Assembly (NCBI GenBank): GCA_934169725.1
Contig: CAKPOF010000002.1
Coordinates: 73,986-137,985 of the forward strand
DNA length: 64,000 nucleotides
Origin: an uncultured Clostridia bacterium
GTDB taxonomy: Bacteria; Bacillota; Clostridia; TANB77; CAG-508
Direction of reading: 5' to 3'
The first letter of the stretch is position 1; each line of letters begins with the position of its first letter. Under the pieces are notes generated by a model. The model was not told the origin of the DNA and did no database searches. It worked only from the letters and a program-made list of their open reading frames with translations. A program made the position numbers and the translations under genes. Positions 2,405 to 58,296 of the stretch are shown here, one piece after another.

Positions 2405-3910
2405 ATGAAAGGTAAAATGAAAAAAATAAAACATGCATTAAAATCTGTAAGAGTAAAATTATTTTTAATGTTATCATTGGTAATATTATTAATTATAATA
2501 TTTTTAATATTAGTAAATAATTTTGTATTTGGACAATTTTATTTATATAGTAAAACTAAAGACTTGGAAAAAGTATATATAGCTATAAATGAGTATTATA
2601 ATAATTCTAATAAGATTGATATTAATTCAGAGTTAGAAAAGATTGCTGTTAGAAATAATTTTGATATTTTAATAAAAAATGATGAGAATATAAATGTATT
2701 TACATCAAATAAAGATTTTTTATCAACATTTGGAGAAATGAATGCAATTAGAAATATAAAAAATAATGGTCAATTAATAGAACAGAATAATAATTTTGTA
2801 ATAAAAAAATTAAAGGATAATAAAACTGGAGTGTCATATATATTATTATACGCTAATTTAGACAATGGATATCTATTGTATATTAGAATACCAGTTTCAT
2901 CAATTGAAGAAAGTGTAAAAATATCTAATAATTTCTTGTATTTAATAGCAGGATTTACAATTTTAATTTCAGCTGTTATTGTGTCTTTTGTAAGCAGAAA
3001 ATTTACAGAACCAATATTAGAATTAAATACAATTGCAAAAAATATGTCTAATTTAGATTTTAGTCATAAATATAGAATTACAGATGCAGATGACGAGATA
3101 AATAATTTAGGAAAAAGCATTAATGTTATGTCTAGCAAATTAGAAAAAACAATAAAACAGTTAAGAAGTACAAATATTGAACTTGAAAGAGATATTGAGG
3201 AAAAATCAAAATTAGATGAAATGAGAAAAAGCTTTATTTCAGATGTTTCTCATGAACTAAAAACACCAATTGCATTAATTCAAGGATATAGTGAAGGATT
3301 GCTTGAAAATGTAAATACAGATGAAGAAAGTCGAAAATTTTATGCAGAAGTAATTTTAGATGAAACCAATAAAATGGATAAACTTGTAAAACAATTATTA
3401 GAACTAATGAAACTAGAATATGGAAAAAGAGAGTTTAATGACAAAGAGTTTAATATTGTTGAATTAGAAAAAGAAGTTATAAGAAAATCTAAAGTAATGT
3501 TACAAGAAAAAGAAGTTGAAGTAGAGCTTGAATCACCAGAAGAAATTAATGTAATAGCAGATGATTTTTATATTGAACAGGTAATAACAAACTATGTAAC
3601 TAATGCTATAAAACATGTTGAAGAAAAAGATGAAAAAAAGAAAATAATAATAACAAATTATGTGGATGTTGAAAAAAATAAAGTAAGAGTTAAAGTATAT
3701 AACACAGGTGAAAATATTGACGAAGAAGACTTGGTAAGAGTATGGAATAGATTTTACAAAGTTGATGAATCAAGAAATAGAGCTGATGGTGGAACAGGTA
3801 TAGGTTTATCATTTGTCAAAGCAATAATGACAAATTACAAAAATGAATATGGAGTTGTAAATAAAGAAAATGGAGTTGAATTTTATTTTGATTTAAATTT
3901 AAAAATATAA
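2405..3910 (+). CDS. Sensor histidine kinase partner of the response regulator
   Basis: N-terminal TM, HisKA SHELKTPIALIQGY, and HATPase_c motifs NAIKH...GGTGIGLSFVKAI. Confidence 0.85.
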   Translation: MKGKMKKIKHALKSVRVKLFLMLSLVILLIIIFLILVNNFVFGQFYLYSKTKDLEKVYIAINEYYNNSNKIDINSELEKIAVRNNFDILIKNDENINVFTSNKDFLSTFGEMNAIRNIKNNGQLIEQNNNFVIKKLKDNKTGVSYILLYANLDNGYLLYIRIPVSSIEESVKISNNFLYLIAGFTILISAVIVSFVSRKFTEPILELNTIAKNMSNLDFSHKYRITDADDEINNLGKSINVMSSKLEKTIKQLRSTNIELERDIEEKSKLDEMRKSFISDVSHELKTPIALIQGYSEGLLENVNTDEESRKFYAEVILDETNKMDKLVKQLLELMKLEYGKREFNDKEFNIVELEKEVIRKSKVMLQEKEVEVELESPEEINVIADDFYIEQVITNYVTNAIKHVEEKDEKKKIIITNYVDVEKNKVRVKVYNTGENIDEEDLVRVWNRFYKVDESRNRADGGTGIGLSFVKAIMTNYKNEYGVVNKENGVEFYFDLNLKI

Positions 3911-4139: not shown

Positions 4140-4277
4140 AAATTCAATAAATATTATTTTTCATACCTTGGTGTCGCAATCTATTAATTAAAAATTAATA
4201 GTAGATTGCTCCAATCGCACTCACTAGCGTTCGTTTGATCGCTTACGCGGTATTTCAAAATAATATTTATTGAATTT
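4140..4277 (+). repeat. Intergenic repeat element, copy 2 (full, with both TIRs)
   Basis: TIR aaattcaataaatattattttt / caaaataatatttattgaattt bracket cataccttggtgtcgc, the hairpin caatctattaat..attaatagtagattg, and tccaatcgcactcactagcgttcgtttgatcgcttacgcggtat. Confidence 0.8.
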
Positions 4278-4463
4278 TTATAATTTAGTTTTATATAAAA
4301 AAATTCCTAGAGTAGTAAACTAAAAGAAAAATAAAATAAAACACTATAACATATCAATTTAATACTTGCAAAAATATAAAATACAAGTATATAAAAAAAT
4401 TAGTTGTAAATAATAATACTAGGATATTGAATTATCAAATAGAACAATTGGGGGAAACAAAAG

Positions 4464-5810
4464 ATGGTAAAAAATAAAAATAGTAAAATAAAAGAAAAAA
4501 TGAAAAGAAGAAATGGTATAACATTAATAGCGTTAGTTATAACTATAATAGTACTTTTAATATTAGCAGGAGTAACAATTGCAAGTATAACAGGAGAGAG
4601 TGGTATATTAAATAAGGCAACAAATGCGAGAGATAATAATGCAAAAGCATCAGCAGAAGAAAGAATAGAAATAGAAGTATTAGGAAGTTATGATAATAAT
4701 GGAAATTTAAGTTTGGATAACTTAAATAATAATTTAAAAAATGTGGATGGTTTAAAATATAATGGAGATGTAATATCAGCTAGTAATAAAATAGAAAGTT
4801 TACCAGTTACAGTAAATATAGATGGATATGATGTAGTAATAACTAAACAAGGAGATATAGAAAAACCAAAAACATTAGGAGATGCAAAATCTGAGGATAT
4901 GCTAACTAAAAGTGAAAATACACTAGTAAATGTATCAGATAAAACAGTAAAAATTCCAGCAGGATTTAAAGTAGCAGATGATAGTGAGACAACAATAGAT
5001 GAAGGAATAGTAATAGAAGATAGTAAAAAGAATCAATTTGTATGGATACCTGTAAGTAGAGAAAATTTTGAAACAAATTTTGTCAGAAGAGAAGGATATT
5101 ATAATGGTAATCTACAAGATATTTCTAATTATGGAGAAGCAGATACTACAGGGGTAAATAAAAAAGTTACGGAAACAAAAACAACACAGGAAGAGGCTAA
5201 AAACATGTATGCAAGTGTAAAAAGAAATGAAGGATTTTATATAGCAAGATATGAGGCTGGAAAAGATGATGAAGGAAATGTAGTATTTAAAAAAGGAGTG
5301 GATGTATATAATTATATACCATGGTCTGCAAATGGAAAAATGCAAGAAACTACAGGAACAGCAGGAGGAGCTATAGAATTAGCGAGAAATTTTGCAAATG
5401 CAAATAATTATAAGACAGTCACAAGTACATTAGGTTATGGAGTGCAATGGGATGCTGTAATGAAATGGATAGAAAATGTAAATAATCCAAATGTAGAAGG
5501 AAAAACTTGTATACAAGATAGTACTGAAATTGGATGGTATAGTGATAATTATGGAGGAAATCTACAAAAAACAGGAACAGATATAAGAGAAGAAAATAAA
5601 GGTTCAAATCAAGTAAAAAAAATATACGACCTTGCAGGAAATGTTTGGGAATGGACAATGGAATCTTATTATGCTAATGACAGAGTTTATAGGGGAGGTT
5701 CTTGTTATGATGTTGGCTCTAAACTACCAATTTCTAGTCGTTGCAATTACATTCCTTCTGGTAGTCATTCAAATGTTGGTTTTCGTACCACTTTATTTTT
5801 AAATAGCTAA
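4464..5810 (+). CDS. Prepilin-like N-terminal (class III signal-like) protein with a C-terminal FGE-sulfatase/C-type-lectin-fold domain
   Basis: N-terminus MKRRNGITLIALVITIIVLLILAG (prepilin-like, Ala at +5). C-terminus DLAGNVWEWTMESYYANDRVYRGGSCYDV...SRCNYIPSGSHSNVGFRTTLFL matches the FGE/DUF323 WEW...RGGS...GFR pattern. Confidence 0.7.
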   Translation: MVKNKNSKIKEKMKRRNGITLIALVITIIVLLILAGVTIASITGESGILNKATNARDNNAKASAEERIEIEVLGSYDNNGNLSLDNLNNNLKNVDGLKYNGDVISASNKIESLPVTVNIDGYDVVITKQGDIEKPKTLGDAKSEDMLTKSENTLVNVSDKTVKIPAGFKVADDSETTIDEGIVIEDSKKNQFVWIPVSRENFETNFVRREGYYNGNLQDISNYGEADTTGVNKKVTETKTTQEEAKNMYASVKRNEGFYIARYEAGKDDEGNVVFKKGVDVYNYIPWSANGKMQETTGTAGGAIELARNFANANNYKTVTSTLGYGVQWDAVMKWIENVNNPNVEGKTCIQDSTEIGWYSDNYGGNLQKTGTDIREENKGSNQVKKIYDLAGNVWEWTMESYYANDRVYRGGSCYDVGSKLPISSRCNYIPSGSHSNVGFRTTLFLNS

Positions 5811-6864: not shown

Positions 6865-8136
6865 TTGTATAAGAAAAAAGTAAAAGTAAAAATTATAAGT
6901 ATAATATTGATAATATTAAGTTTAAATAGTTTGAATTTTATAAATTCTGTAAAAGCAATTAGTGTTGATAATACTAATATAAACTCAGTAGAAGATTGCG
7001 GAGCATTACTAAAATATAAAGGAATGATAGTAAAAACATTTTATGCTGAATATACAGGAGAGGGAAAAAGATATCCAGCATATTGTTTAGACAAAACTAA
7101 AACAGGAGTATCTGATCAAAATCCATCATATTCTGTGTCTATTGAAAATGCAATAAATGATGTGAAATTATGGAGAATTTTAATAAATGGATATCCATAC
7201 AAGACAATAGAAGAATTAGGCGTAGCTAATAGAGAAGAAGCTTTTACTGCTACAAAACAAGCTGTATATACATATATTCATAATAATCAATTAGGTGATT
7301 ATGAGGCAATAGGAGAAGCTGGTAAAAGAACATTAAATGCGTTGTATAAAATAGTGAATAATGCAAATAATTCTAATGAAGTACAAATTTCTAATAGAAT
7401 AGATATTAGTAAGATTAAAGATGAATGGGAACAAGATAATGTACAATTAGAATATGTTTATAAAAAGTATAAAGTTACAGCAAATACTAGGATATCAAAC
7501 TATAAAGTAAAAATAGATATGGCAACAAAAGTTGAGGGTATAAAAATTGTAGATGAAAAAAATAATGAAAAGGAAGAATTTTTACCAAATGAAATTTTTA
7601 AAATATTAGTACCAATAAAAAATCTTAAAGAAGATGGAGAAATAAAAATAAGTATAGATACACAAGTAGAAACTAAACCGATATTATATGGTAGAGCCTC
7701 TAGTTCAAATTTACAAGATTATGCATTAACAGCATCAACATATGAAGATGGAAAAGGAGAAATATCAGATAAATACGGAAAAAATGAAACAAAAATTATA
7801 ATAATAAAACAAGATGAGAATACTGGAGAAAGAATAGAAGGAACAGAATTTCAAATATTAGACGAAAACAAAAATGTTTTATATACAAATTTAAAAACAG
7901 ATAAAGATGGAATAATTAAAGTTGAAAATTTAATACCAGGAAAATATTATATAAAAGAAACTAAAGCAAAAGATGGATATGAGTTATATAAAGATTTAAT
8001 TGAAGTAGATATAAGCTTAAATGAAGAGTTTTCTGTAAATGTAAATAATAGTAAAACAGAAAAACCAAGTATAGAAAAAATACAAGAAATAGAAGAAGTG
8101 AAAAATAAAAAAATATTACCAGTCACAGGAATGTAG
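6865..8136 (+). CDS. Secreted surface adhesin-like protein with a thioester-type domain, a CnaB-type domain and a C-terminal LPVTG
   Basis: Signal peptide; AYCLDKTK...TATKQAVYTY resembles the TED Cys/Gln motif pair; GTEFQILDENKNV...IPGKYYIKETKAKDGYEL resembles a CnaB/SpaA fold; ends KKILPVTGM followed by a stop. TTG start at 6865. Confidence 0.7.
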   Translation: MYKKKVKVKIISIILIILSLNSLNFINSVKAISVDNTNINSVEDCGALLKYKGMIVKTFYAEYTGEGKRYPAYCLDKTKTGVSDQNPSYSVSIENAINDVKLWRILINGYPYKTIEELGVANREEAFTATKQAVYTYIHNNQLGDYEAIGEAGKRTLNALYKIVNNANNSNEVQISNRIDISKIKDEWEQDNVQLEYVYKKYKVTANTRISNYKVKIDMATKVEGIKIVDEKNNEKEEFLPNEIFKILVPIKNLKEDGEIKISIDTQVETKPILYGRASSSNLQDYALTASTYEDGKGEISDKYGKNETKIIIIKQDENTGERIEGTEFQILDENKNVLYTNLKTDKDGIIKVENLIPGKYYIKETKAKDGYELYKDLIEVDISLNEEFSVNVNNSKTEKPSIEKIQEIEEVKNKKILPVTGM

Positions 8137-8213
8137 AAAAAAGTGTTATATGACAATGTTTTATATAAATTTGTTGTATAGCACTTTAATTATTAAATAA
8201 AAAATAAATCATT

Positions 8214-8250
8214 TTCATTTTCATACCTTGGTGTCGCAAATCACATATTA
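8214..8250 (+). repeat. Truncated repeat element (left end only), copy 3
   Basis: ttcataccttggtgtcgcaaatcacatattaaaatcat; the 3' conserved half is missing. Confidence 0.65.
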
Positions 8251-8341
8251 AAATCATATTTTTAACTTTTTAAAACTATTGAATAAAAAAGTAAATTTTG
8301 ATAGAATATATTGGAAAATAAAAAATAAGGGAGCGTAAAGA

Positions 8342-29350: not shown

Positions 29351-30989
29351 ATGATAAAAAAGACAGAAAAAAAAGTTGCTGGAAGAAAAAAAGAGACGTT
29401 TATGCAAGGAATAGTAACTTTAATATTTTCACAATTGTTAATAAAATTATTAGGACTTGTATATAATTTATATTTAACGAATAGACAGGGATTTGGAGAT
29501 AGAGGTAATGGGATTGTATCAGCAAGTTATCAAATTTATGCTGTATTGTTAACAATTTCGTCAACAGGTGTCCCAAATGCGATTTCAAAATTAGTTTCAG
29601 AAAGAGTTGCTATTGGAGACCATAAAGGTGCATATAGAATTTTCAAAATTGCATTTGCAACATTTGCTGTTATAGGTTTAATAGGAAGTTTAATGTTATT
29701 TTTTGGAGCTAATATTATAGCTAATCAATGGCTACAAATACCTGATGCAGAAATGACAATGGTAGCATTATCGCCTGCAGTATTTTTTGTTGCAATAGCA
29801 TCTGTTATGAGAGGATATTTTAATGGAAGACAAAATTTAAAAGTGACAGCAAGGTCACAAACATTAGAACAGATATTTAAAACAACTTTAACAATAATAT
29901 TAGTTGAAATAGTAGCAATTATTTCAAATACATCAACAGTTTGGATGGCAGGTGGTGCTACATTAGCAACAACATTGGCAACATTTGTAGGATTTGGATA
30001 TTTATATTTATTTTATAAAACAAGAAGAAAAGAAATTGCTTCTGAAATAAGAGAAACAGTTAATTATAAATATGAAAGAGTAAGAGAAGTAGTAAAGAAA
30101 ATTTTATTGGTATCAATACCAATAGCATTAACTGCAATATTGTCTTCATTAAATAAAAATATAGATTCGTTTACAGTAGTAAGAAGTTTAAAACAATTTA
30201 TGAGTGAAGATATGGCAGTATCTCAATATGGAATATTGGGAGGTAAGGTTGATACATTAACAAGTTTGCCATTGTCATTTAATGTGGCTTTTGCTACAGC
30301 ATTAGTACCAGCAATATCAGCCGCTAAGGCTGTAAAAGATTATAAATCTATTAAACAAAAATCAGTTTTTACATTACTTATGTCAATGTTGATTGGATTA
30401 CCATGTACAATAGGGATGTATTTATTTGCTGGACCGATATTAAATTTATTATATCCAAATGCAAGTTCAGGAACTTTAGTATTACAAATTAGTGCATTTA
30501 CAATAATATTTACAATATTAGATCAAACAATAAATTCAATATTACAAGGATACGGAAAATTACGAGTACCAGCTATTGCTTTAGGATGTCGGAGTTTTGG
30601 TAAAATTAATTTTGAATTTAGTTTTGGTTCCTATACCTGCAATAGGAGTAAATGGAGCAGCTATAGCTTCAGTAGCTTGTCATATGGTAGCATTTATAAT
30701 TTCTATAATTGCATTAAATAAAACTATAAAATTAAATTTAGAATTTAAAAGATTTGTTATAAAACCAATAATTGCAACACTAATGATGGGAATTTGTTCA
30801 TATTTTGTTTATATGATACTTTTAGGAATAATAAGACAAAAATTGGCAACAATAATAGCAATTATATTTGCAATAGTTATATATGCTTTAGCTGTTGTTG
30901 CATTAAAAATATTTACTAAAGAAGAAATAAAAATGTTACCAGGTGGTAATAAGATATGTAAAATATTAGAAAAAATAAAAATATATTAA
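29351..30989 (+). pseudogene. spoVB: SpoVB-like polysaccharide-biosynthesis/MATE-type flippase, interrupted by a frameshift near 30585-30600
   Basis: The 456-aa ORF has a nonsense tail (SFGKINFEFSFGSYTCNRSKW...); the overlapping +1 ORF (30597-30989) carries the conserved C-terminal TM helices. Confidence 0.6.
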
Positions 30990-56754: not shown

Positions 56755-56886
56755 TTATAAGTTAAATATTTTAAGTTGGAAATTGTAATAACAGAGAAAT
56801 TTGGTGAGAAAAAACTAAAAATTCCTATTGAAAATAAAACAAATTAATAGTAAACTATTACTAAAGAAAAAGTGGAGGGAATGCAA

Positions 56887-58296
56887 ATGATAAAAAAAGA
56901 AAATGGAGTAACTTTAATTGCATTAACTATAGCTGTTATAATAATATTAACTTTAACTGGCATGATAGTGTATTCGGCTAAAGATAGTGTTTATATAAAA
57001 AATTTAACCAATATGAAAAATGATATTTCTAATTTAAGAGATAAAGTATCATCATATTATTCAGAATATGGAAAAATACCAGCAACAACTGAATATACAG
57101 ATGTGAGTAATTTGCAATCAGCTGATATTTTGGGTGAAAATGATACAGGAAAGTTTTTGGTTATTGAATTAAAATATTTAGATGGATTAACATTAAATTA
57201 TGGAAAAGATTATGAAAAATATAAAGCAGGAGAATATAGCAATATAACGGATTTAACAGATATATATGTAATAAATGAAAATAGTAATAATATATTTTAT
57301 ATAGAAGGAATACGAGTTAGAGAAAATGGACAAACTAAAATGTATTATACAGATTATACAAATGGAGATTCAGAAAAAGTTAATTTAAAACAAGTTTCAG
57401 ATTGGCATGAGGATATCAATGAAAGTGGAGAAAAAATAATAACTAATGGTGTGACCGAAATGAAAATAGGTGATTATATCAATTATAATCCAAAGGGTGA
57501 AGCCAAATATAAGACATATACTTCAAATGAGAGTGTAAATGGATACCAAGATCAAACATTTGAATTAGACAGTTATACTAGTGGATGGAGAATTTTGGGA
57601 TTTGATGAAGAAAAAAATGAGATATTACTTGTATCAGCTGATTCTATAGGACCTGATATAGGAGGAGAAAAAGGAAGCGGAATAGACGAAAATGATAGTA
57701 GTTGCTTTGTATTAAAATCAGAGGAAGGATATGCTAATGGAATAAAGGAATTAGACAATATAAGTAAAATGTATGGGCAAGGGAAAGGTGCTGATTCCGC
57801 TAGAAGTATAACAATAAATGATGTAAATAAATTAACAGGATATGATCCAGAAACTTCCAATTATGGAGCAGGACAAAAATATGCTTATGGTAATGAAATG
57901 ACATATAGTGGATTATCAAAATACTATGATGAAAAAAATGATGAGTGGAAAAGACTTGATACAAATGAACCAATAACTATAAAATCAAATTATTATACAT
58001 ATAGTATAAATGATAAAATATTAAGTGATAGTATAGAAGCAGATTTGTTAAATGTAAAAAGAAAAACATATTGGACTAAAGATAGATTTGCATATACAAT
58101 GGACAATGGATGTTATTTTGGAATAAGATGTGTATATAAAAATTCAACATATGGAATGGAATATGGAGGACTATATTCGACATTTGGAAATAAAGGACAG
58201 TTAAGTTATGGAGTTAGACCAGTAGTTTCATTAAAATCTAATGTAGTTGTTTTACAAAAAGATGGAACATCAGAAAATCCACATGAAATACAATAA
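56887..58296 (+). CDS. Prepilin-like N-terminal protein, paralogue of 4464-5810, with an uncharacterised C-terminal domain
   Basis: MIKKENGVTLIALTIAVIIILTLTG (same N-terminal pattern, Ala at +5); C-terminal ...GCYFGIRCVYKN...SYGVRPVVSL may be a degenerate GFR-type motif. Confidence 0.6.
   Translation: MIKKENGVTLIALTIAVIIILTLTGMIVYSAKDSVYIKNLTNMKNDISNLRDKVSSYYSEYGKIPATTEYTDVSNLQSADILGENDTGKFLVIELKYLDGLTLNYGKDYEKYKAGEYSNITDLTDIYVINENSNNIFYIEGIRVRENGQTKMYYTDYTNGDSEKVNLKQVSDWHEDINESGEKIITNGVTEMKIGDYINYNPKGEAKYKTYTSNESVNGYQDQTFELDSYTSGWRILGFDEEKNEILLVSADSIGPDIGGEKGSGIDENDSSCFVLKSEEGYANGIKELDNISKMYGQGKGADSARSITINDVNKLTGYDPETSNYGAGQKYAYGNEMTYSGLSKYYDEKNDEWKRLDTNEPITIKSNYYTYSINDKILSDSIEADLLNVKRKTYWTKDRFAYTMDNGCYFGIRCVYKNSTYGMEYGGLYSTFGNKGQLSYGVRPVVSLKSNVVVLQKDGTSENPHEIQ

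Follow-up and report, generated by a model that had tools for sequence, protein, structure and literature searches.

The diversity-generating retroelements (DGRs) closest to the locus described here are that of Treponema denticola, with its target TvpA (PDB 2Y3C), and the 'category b' elements of Wu et al. (2018; PMC5758913). Their targets carry a C-terminal variable region (VR) in a C-type-lectin (CLec) fold of the FGE type, inside an FGE-sulfatase domain; the template repeats (TRs) are rich in AAY codons, Avd is encoded in the cassettes, a MutS-like (MSL) accessory gene is present in 16 known DGRs, and several or remote paralogous targets occur per genome. We found a protein family with the same traits through a gene at positions 4464–5810 (+ strand) of a 64-kb stretch of DNA from an uncultured Clostridia bacterium. 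We call the whole stretch the window; it is the part of this genome that our searches covered. The gene product probably is a two-module cell-surface ligand-binding protein, in which a pilin-like carrier is joined to a TvpA-type FGE/CLec domain with a fossil DGR VR. TvpA is a lipoprotein-type protein without a pilin-like N-terminal carrier module, whereas the protein described here has such a carrier and a linker. The likeness between the two lies only in the scaffold, and in the window copy the VR is decayed and has neither a cognate TR nor a cognate reverse transcriptase (RT).

For the N-terminal half, the nearest described proteins are bulky modular pilins such as PilB and PilC of Streptococcus sanguinis, which are thought to be located at the filament tip (PMC8179133). 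Like PilB, with its vWA module, and PilC, with its lectin module, our protein has a short hydrophilic leader with Gly, a hydrophobic tract of ~21 residues, a predicted long α1 helix with a predicted small globular module of pilin size, and a linker to a bulky ligand-binding module. PilB and PilC, however, have Glu5 and the IPR012902 motif, are encoded in a pilus operon and are cleaved by PilD, whereas the proteins described here lack Glu5, stay below the threshold of the pilin model and are encoded at sites scattered through housekeeping contexts. Lack of Glu5 is shared with GspK/PilK and S. sanguinis PilA and is a property of the filament-tip cap. In concept, the locus also resembles the DGRs of Bacteroides type V pili, where a gut DGR hypermutates the binding tip of a surface adhesin (bioRxiv 10.1101/2024.11.15.621889); the pilus system, the proteins and their anchoring are different there, and that paper does not mention type IV pili, Clostridia or Firmicutes. 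In the literature searched, the leader motif 'ITLIALV' had no match, and neither the fusion of a DGR target to a Glu5-less pilin-like carrier nor the size of the carrier family is described, except that one paper notes in passing the rare occurrence of GspG-type pilin domains in DGR targets (PMC11661182).

The features of the gene are as follows.

4464–5810, + strand: whole gene, from an ATG start (open reading frame (ORF) list), for a 448-aa modular protein made of a pilin-like carrier, a linker and an FGE/CLec domain with a DGR-type VR end
4450–4455, + strand: Shine-Dalgarno-like GGGGGA (GGGGG at 4450–4454), read from the sequence, with the ATG 9 nt downstream
4464–4517, + strand: basic hydrophilic leader, aa 1–18, of net charge +7; Gly18 is its last residue and is invariant in 67 homologs
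4518–4583, + strand: 22-residue hydrophobic tract ITLIALVITIIVLLILAGVTIA, spanning mature positions +1 to +22 and carrying Ala at +5, supported by entropy and conservation
4464–4868, + strand: N-terminal carrier module, aa 1 to ~135, a kinked helix of ~53 residues and a small α/β unit, from the AlphaFold2 (AF2) model and homolog searches
4869–4940, + strand: linker of varying length, aa ~136–159, in indel-rich, high-entropy alignment columns
4941–5807, + strand: FGE-sulfatase/C-type-lectin-fold domain, aa ~160–448, directly matched over its last ~60–100 aa and inferred for the rest
5664–5795, + strand: fossil DGR VR, aa 401–444, from family entropy, GC content at third codon positions (GC3) and TR comparison
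5775–5792, + strand: degenerate 3′ end of the VR, GTTGGTTTTCGTACCACT, resembling an initiation-of-mutagenic-homing (IMH) site, judged by aligned VR tails and by where TR/VR homology ends

The nature of the C-terminus is revealed by its relatives. Among 8000 candidates scored, 7234 matched the protein at E ≤ 1e-3, nearly all of them being unnamed proteins of gut metagenomes. Homologs that are 55–81% identical were aligned in sets of 23 and 67. Within the last ~45 residues, R407, R410, G411, G412, R426 and G439-F-R441 are invariant, and the columns between them hold 11–16 residue types. At aa 401–440 the entropy averages about 1.8 bits per site, as against 0.4–1.0 elsewhere. A genome scan yielded 38 loci, all in metagenome-assembled genomes (MAGs) of uncultured gut Clostridia or Eubacteriales, and several paralogs occur per MAG (7 in the Hadza MAG CAKPPS01, at least 5 in the rabbit MAG CANPZF01). 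At four loci (L007, L009, L011 and L018) a complete RT with the DGR-type SQxFANxYLN…YxDD motif is encoded about 1 kb 3′ of the homolog. L007 holds a complete cassette in the order target–MSL–Avd–RT–TR, with these parts:

target, 434 aa, with the same GITLIALVITIIVLLILAG leader
MutS-like MSL (Pfam MutS_I 2.3e-9)
bAvd (Pfam 8e-18)
RT (Pfam RVT_1 7.8e-20)
TR, with the translation KSYNTNNRVNRGGNYNNTGANNPASNRNNNNPSNSNDNIGFRLTL

TR and VR were paired by an ungapped scan in which a TR adenine was allowed to pair with any base. The L007 VR (1174–1293) differs from its TR (3462–3581) by 19 mismatches, 19 of 19 at TR adenines, and equivalent Asn-rich TRs are present in L009 and L011. L043, whose target is 76% identical to the window protein, has the arrangement target–MSL–TR with 20 adenine mismatches and 2 others. 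Over the codon-aligned core of these cis pairs, mismatches at non-adenine TR positions amount to 0/73 in L007, 1/74 in L009 and 1/73 in L043. When the L007 TR codons were mapped on the 67-sequence alignment, all 17 AAY codons fell on columns of 2.74–3.64 bits, the columns of adenine-free TR codons averaging 0.56 bits. Column entropy rises with the adenine count of the TR codon (Spearman rho 0.74, p 8e-9), and NNY codons can specify 97.7% of the residues in AAY columns, the background being 76.5%. At the level of the family, variability is limited to TR-adenine positions. This match of entropy and adenine is the defining signature of DGR mutagenic retrohoming: the family consists of bona fide DGR targets of the TvpA/FGE-CLec type, and the last ~45 residues are the VR.

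Several further observations concern the DGRs of the relatives. Their TR was not found between target and RT; it sits 3′ of the RT. The conserved 3′ flank of DGR-competent copies contains no hairpin or cruciform better than those of shuffled sequence, and no relatives were found on viral contigs. In L043 (10001–12320) neither Avd nor RT is encoded within 10 kb, the next gene being that for GAPDH, so that its TR is either served in trans by a distant RT or marks an intermediate stage of cassette decay. Trans-diversification of orphan paralogs was considered by comparing them with a complete DGR in the same MAG and gave no clear case; L012 is closer to the L011 TR than to the L007 TR. The MAG CAKNKX01 contains three paralogs with an identical VR (L017 4459–4578 and 6229–6348; L018 11236–11355), and in L018 a stop codon interrupts the target although an RT adjoins it. 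This argues for duplication or gene conversion of a frozen VR and not for independent diversification.

The VR in the window is set apart from those of its relatives by its composition, the GC3 values being:

L043: VR 0.477, gene body 0.134
L042a: VR 0.432, gene body 0.122
L042b: VR 0.409, gene body 0.132
L041: VR 0.432, gene body 0.111
window copy: VR 0.136, gene body 0.097

The high VR GC3 of DGR-linked or DGR-competent relatives is the imprint of the TR, and this imprint is gone in the window copy. Compared with the nearest TR, that of L043, the window VR is mismatched at 16 of 73 non-adenine positions, with 16 of 16 changes toward A/T (C>T 10, C>A 3, G>A 2, T>A 1) and 11 of the 16 at third codon positions; the gene bodies of the two differ by 14.5%. 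The GC-rich end of TR/VR homology reads ATCGGTTTTCGCCCCACT in DGR-linked relatives and GTTGGTTTTCGTACCACT in the window (2 substitutions), and the 3′ flank common to L042, L043 and L007 is absent from the window. The VR of the window is a decayed, fixed orphan, that is, a fossil. As none of the scaffold residues has been lost, folding and binding are probably retained, with a single frozen specificity. According to the original prediction no VR-like codon bias is visible in the gene. This holds literally for the copy itself, in which only 3 of 44 VR codons are AAY and GC3 is low, but the conclusion that the region is unrelated to DGR diversification was wrong, because the family comparison reveals a DGR VR.

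The window does hold a truncated DGR, which had been placed at a distance of about 17 kb; it is real and lies about 16 kb from the gene. It is represented by two features.

22976–23377, + strand: bAvd gene (Pfam bAvd, E 3.8e-16), 58% identical to the Avd of L007
23370–23609, + strand: RT stub, matched by tblastn to aa 7–96 only of the L007 RT (40% identity, E 5e-14)

The identity of the bAvd to that of L007 makes this a local remnant of the same DGR lineage as the DGRs of the family, and since its RT is cut down to a stub, the local DGR is dead. The remnant adjoins a different, leaderless CLec-like target (22023–22928), which itself contains a 21-nt tandem repeat (EEETEKI) at 22173–22261. The RT stub runs into a gene for an NrtR-type winged-helix protein, and the remnant is flanked by transposase genes, IS30-like at 20574–21866 (− strand) and an IS3-like rve fragment at 26410–27015. 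This suggests that it was cut by rearrangement.

Copies of the gene have been reshuffled as well. L044, the same locus from a Hadza metagenome, matches the window with 100% identity from about 5600 onward across the sortase and thioester-domain (TED) genes; upstream of this stretch the identity is only about 85%. Between about 4400 and 5500, L041 does not differ from the window, but its flanks are different and so is its VR, which is GC3-rich; the two gene bodies are 98.4% identical, and the VRs differ at 18 of 73 non-adenine positions of the TR. As these alignments show, paralogs exchange gene bodies and VR ends by homologous recombination, with breakpoints at the conserved YDLAGNVWEWTMES block that borders the VR. 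That L041 has a fresh VR hints at present or recent activity of a DGR somewhere in the species complex.

The domain that contains the VR matches Pfam FGE-sulfatase (PF03781) with 26.0 bits against a cutoff of 23.3 (E 8.6e-6), aa 386–442 corresponding to positions 177–253 of the 255 in the profile. Profile searches against the sequences of PDB entries identified SUMF2/pFGE (1y4j; E 2.5e-5 to 8e-7) and TvpA (2y3c; E 0.0017–0.007), both matches spanning the VR-bearing scaffold. An FGE/CLec domain as expected of a DGR target is therefore present as a direct match over the last ~60–100 residues; the whole domain is put at aa ~160–448 because 'VKIPAGF' resembles the canonical start of FGE domains. 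The 'complete-looking' FGE scaffold of the original prediction was thus significant as a match and overstated in its extent. The C-terminal half is a further, here defunct, member of the well-described class of FGE-lectin DGR targets.

Some results weigh against this account of the C-terminus. The AF2 model of the C-terminal domain has a pLDDT below 50 past aa 350 and is unreliable, which is why the assignment to the CLec fold rests on sequence profiles over the last 60–100 residues. No TR for the window VR was found in the 64 kb by direct and inverted repeat searches, blastn or the DGR-aware ungapped scan, and the same repeat searches detected no repeat joining the VR to the DGR remnant. The only bAvd gene and RT stub in the window stand beside another target. 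The DGR history of this copy is thus read from its relatives and its composition. We infer that the genome holds no TR elsewhere; with 64 kb in view, a diverged one may exist.

If such a TR belonged to an intact DGR elsewhere in the genome, the window VR could still be diversified in trans and would be a remote target, not a fossil. Remote DGR targets are well documented (PMC5758913), L043 has a TR without an adjoining RT, and L041 combines a gene body almost identical to ours with a TR-like VR, and this fresh VR keeps the idea of an active remote target alive at low probability. Against this, the TR imprint is lost here, and all differences from the nearest TR at non-adenine positions point toward A/T. 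The IMH-like end and the conserved 3′ flank have degenerated, and the same VR allele occurs on at least 23 contigs and also in the recombinant with the 85%-identical gene body. We therefore regard ongoing diversification in trans as improbable. Far less probable still, and in our view to be rejected, is that the protein acts as a membrane-anchored enzyme of the FGE/SUMF1/EgtB family, catalysing formylglycine generation or a related oxidation. The Pfam match is above the gathering threshold, EgtB is matched weakly (E 0.035), and the C-terminal scaffold YDLxGNVWEWT … RVxRGxS … R … P … NxGFR is shared with SUMF2/pFGE and FGE (SUMF1). Yet the match covers that C-terminal scaffold only and does not extend over the full length of the profile, and among solved structures the closest are those of SUMF2, which is non-catalytic, and of TvpA, a DGR binding protein. 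Unlike in SUMF1/FGE, the N-terminal two-thirds of the domain are divergent, the matching surface is hypervariable and the conserved catalytic Cys pair is absent: the columns after RGG are hypervariable, Cys414 standing in a TAC-templated Y/F/C column and Cys427 in an AAY column. Hypervariability of the very columns that hold the catalytic Cys residues in FGE indicates a binding domain and not an enzyme.

The decayed VR is thus preferred as the reading of the C-terminus; its N-terminal partner belongs to a much larger family. The N-terminus reads MVKNKNSKIKEKMKRRNG followed by ITLIALVITIIVLLILAGVTIA, that is, a leader of net charge +7 ending in Gly18 and then a 22-residue tract with a mean Kyte-Doolittle hydropathy of 3.18, in line with the short hydrophilic leader with a Gly or Ala end and the ~21 hydrophobic residues of pilins. 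Use of the internal Met13 as start would shorten the leader to 5 residues. In the 67-homolog alignment Gly18 and Ala23 (+5) are invariant and mean entropy at aa 21–40 is 0.11 bits. Among 100 representatives of 50%-identity clusters, the leader Gly at −1, Thr at +2, Leu at +3, Ala at +5 and the whole 22-residue tract are at least 90% conserved. Conservation of single residues to this degree, within a membrane helix, points to a specific partner or a specific mode of packing. AF2 models the N-module with a pLDDT of 79 overall and above 90 at aa 60–130, predicting helices at 21–43 and 48–73 with a GESG kink between them, and after these one short helix and three short strands.

An exhaustive search with aa 1–140 detected 21,070 representatives (50% identity) at E ≤ 1e-3 and 2,395 at E ≤ 1e-10, with lengths of about 100 to 650 aa. 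According to Pfam, the cargo in 100 of these representatives comprises FGE-sulfatase (10), BspA-type LRR_5 (8), LRR_8 (4), DUF285 (3) and Big_2 (3) domains as well as one GH26–CBM35–dockerin enzyme, one GDSL lipase and one GLUG protein. The N-module (aa 1 to ~135) is a separate, widespread carrier of extracellular cargo. Non-pilin surface proteins with class III signal peptides are known from archaea, for example the sugar-binding proteins of the Sulfolobus 'bindosome'. The cargo spectrum of the N-module suggests that a prepilin-type signal may likewise serve as a general device for export and anchoring, although the archaeal case belongs to another domain of life with its own peptidase, PibD, and the analysis yielded no evidence of an analogous system. 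A second type of such a module is encoded in the window itself.

56872–58296, + strand: second leader-bearing gene, found by motif scan, for a 474-aa product (…KKENG followed by VTLIALTIAV…, Ala at +5) with the α1 sequence 'SSYYSEYGKIP'

Its product aligns in register with Geobacter PilA-N over 63 residues (E 0.038), has no Pfam domain and ends in the motif '…YGVRPVVSL'. In L013 and L022 an N-module of this type is fused to a DGR-type FGE/VR C-terminus. Genes that consist of the module only were also seen. P0288 is a complete module-only ORF of 125 aa without Glu5, present on 31 contigs. L045 (10001–11887) has a 125-aa module-only ORF that is found in identical form on 22 contigs; behind it come an ORF of 52 aa and one of 342 aa, the latter leaderless and of the LRR_5/DUF285 type. 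The arrangement resembles a carrier–cargo gene that has been stably split and may be a pseudogene or phase-variable.

Does the N-module belong to the type IV pilins? On the features listed in the original prediction, there is little to correct: the ORF, the basic leader, the Gly, the hydrophobic tract and the Ala at +5 are all as described, that Ala being invariant. The proposed fusion of a prepilin-like leader to an FGE/CLec domain stands as an architecture with a significant FGE match, but its prepilin part is not established. Of the proposed checks, the profile search placed FGE-sulfatase above its cutoff and the pilin domain N_methyl below, and structure prediction yielded a usable model for the N-module and a poor one for the C-terminal domain.

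Slightly better than even, in our estimate, are the chances that the N-module is a class-III-signal-like, pilin-like anchor or tip subunit rather than a plain signal anchor, and processing of the leader by a prepilin peptidase is a candidate reading that is unproven. The competing view, that the N-terminus is an uncleaved signal anchor of type II topology, with no type IV filament and a prepilin likeness produced by a basic stretch before a hydrophobic helix, is a serious contender that we hold to be somewhat short of an even chance. It gains from a series of results that weigh against a pilin. Pfam N_methyl (PF07963) reaches 15.9 bits against a cutoff of 21.2 (E 0.0099), the NCBIfam scan of the protein gave no match to the prepilin model TIGR02532, Glu at mature +5 is missing in every member of the family, and Foldseek found no structural match to the N-module at E < 1 and no pilin. 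Motif patterns for the PilB/PilT Walker A, PilD and canonical Glu5 pilins gave 0 hits in ~1.3 Mb flanking ~115 leader-bearing genes; as this DNA comes from many genomes, it shows that the genes do not cluster with pilus machinery and does not speak for genome-wide absence. Likewise, no prepilin peptidase, PilB/PilT or canonical Glu5-pilin motif was found in the window, and no module-only gene was found in a pilus-operon context, one of these genes resembling the 5′ half of a split LRR/DUF285 gene. The cargo, enzymes and LRR adhesins, is also typical of ordinary surface proteins. Against a plain anchor, specific residues, beyond hydrophobicity, are strongly conserved across 50%-identity clusters, and two independent types of N-module stand in register with the α1 of genuine pilins, including the motif 'SYYSE…P'. 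Profiles of the FGE family match PilA-N (E 0.012–0.014) and MshA weakly and in register, and 10 of 100 N-module representatives match N_methyl at E ≤ 1e-3. Loss of Glu5 is not disqualifying, since tip-capping subunits of type 4 filaments (GspK/PilK, S. sanguinis PilA) lack it and their signal peptides escape detection tools (PMC10191384, PMC9934059). A bolder proposal, which we consider unlikely in its full form, is that the more than 20,000 clusters of Glu5-less pilin-like carriers in gut Clostridia are interchangeable filament tips cleaved by prepilin peptidase, or membrane-proximal pseudopilin anchors, that display adhesins, enzymes and DGR-hypermutated lectin domains.

With the pilin-like carrier and the fossil VR as the favoured parts, the protein would work as follows. 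In the relatives, a DGR cassette copies the Asn-codon-rich TR by error-prone reverse transcription into the VR, as their TR/VR pairs show, and about 17–20 binding-site residues are thereby randomised on a fixed scaffold (R..RGG....G...P.S.R...P....GFR.TL). In the window copy the VR is no longer refreshed; it has drifted to the AT-rich composition of the genome and become fixed, leaving a single frozen specificity. The N-module, made up of a basic leader with a Gly end, a near-invariant Glu5-less helix, a putative amphipathic helix and a small α/β unit, presumably exports this and many other cargoes and displays them on the outer side of the membrane. Its most likely role in this is that of a type-IV-pilin-like anchor or tip subunit whose leader resembles a class III signal peptide; failing that, it would be a plain membrane anchor. 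The N-terminus would then sit in the membrane and the CLec domain outside, binding its ligand through the old VR surface.

The window is AT-rich (about 25% GC) and chromosomal. It encodes Spo0A, SMC, MinD/E and RodA, and its host is a spore-forming Clostridia-type bacterium. The exact 448-aa sequence (protein P0001) is found on at least 23 contigs with identical synteny, dnaG–rpoD–MscS–two-component system–gene–sortase–TED adhesin. At the gathering threshold, Rfam detected no riboswitch or other RNA 5′ of the gene in a scan of the whole window. A repeated element lies in this region and is given here as context, with no claimed relation to the gene.

4154–4262, + strand: copy of a repeated structured intergenic element, 5′ of the gene

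The 18-nt core of this element (CATACCTTGGTGTCGCAA…AATCGCACTCACTA.CGTTCGTTTGATCGCTTACGC.GTAT) starts at 1486, 4162, 8222, 11540, 45486, 56634 and 63388, so that the window holds 7 copies where chance would give 0.04. The seven are all on the + strand, directly 3′ of + strand genes, and two of them lie immediately 5′ of the two pilin-like genes. Five copies are full-length (about 110 nt) and two (8222 and 45486) consist of the first ~35 nt only. The element is GC-richer than its surroundings, has a predicted 16-bp hairpin with compensatory changes in 3 pairs and matches no Rfam family; it could be an element of the type of repetitive extragenic palindromes or miniature inverted-repeat transposable elements (REP/MITE-like), a terminator module or a small RNA.

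Two other genes deserve mention. The TED–SpaA adhesin gene next to the sortase gene (6865–8136, + strand; 423 aa, the same in L039 and L040) has its stop codon right after 'LPVTGM', and positions 8137–8260 contain no in-frame hydrophobic tail or basic anchor, with a partial copy of the intergenic repeat just 3′; its sorting signal may be truncated or non-canonical. The ORF of a MurJ/SpoVB-like polytopic membrane protein (29351–30989, + strand) ends in an odd low-complexity tail and is overlapped by an ORF in a different frame (30597–30989), which suggests a frameshift or sequencing error.

The locus is a clean natural example of the fossilisation of a DGR target, the series running from the full cassette of L007 through L043, with MSL and TR only, to the gene described here, at whose locus no part of the cassette is left. 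Along this series AT drift erases the TR imprint while recombination at the VR border keeps shuffling. For annotation, this means that a decayed VR can be invisible in a single sequence and obvious in a family alignment. More broadly, the family joins DGR hypervariation to a pilin-like carrier found at the head of over 20,000 protein clusters from uncultured gut Clostridia, whose surface cargo is diverse. If the carrier does feed a type IV filament or prepilin-peptidase pathway, it would be a major overlooked route of surface display in abundant bacteria of the human and animal gut, and proteins such as the one described here would provide a Gram-positive, monoderm 'hypervariable pilus tip', the counterpart of the DGR-diversified type V adhesins of Bacteroides.

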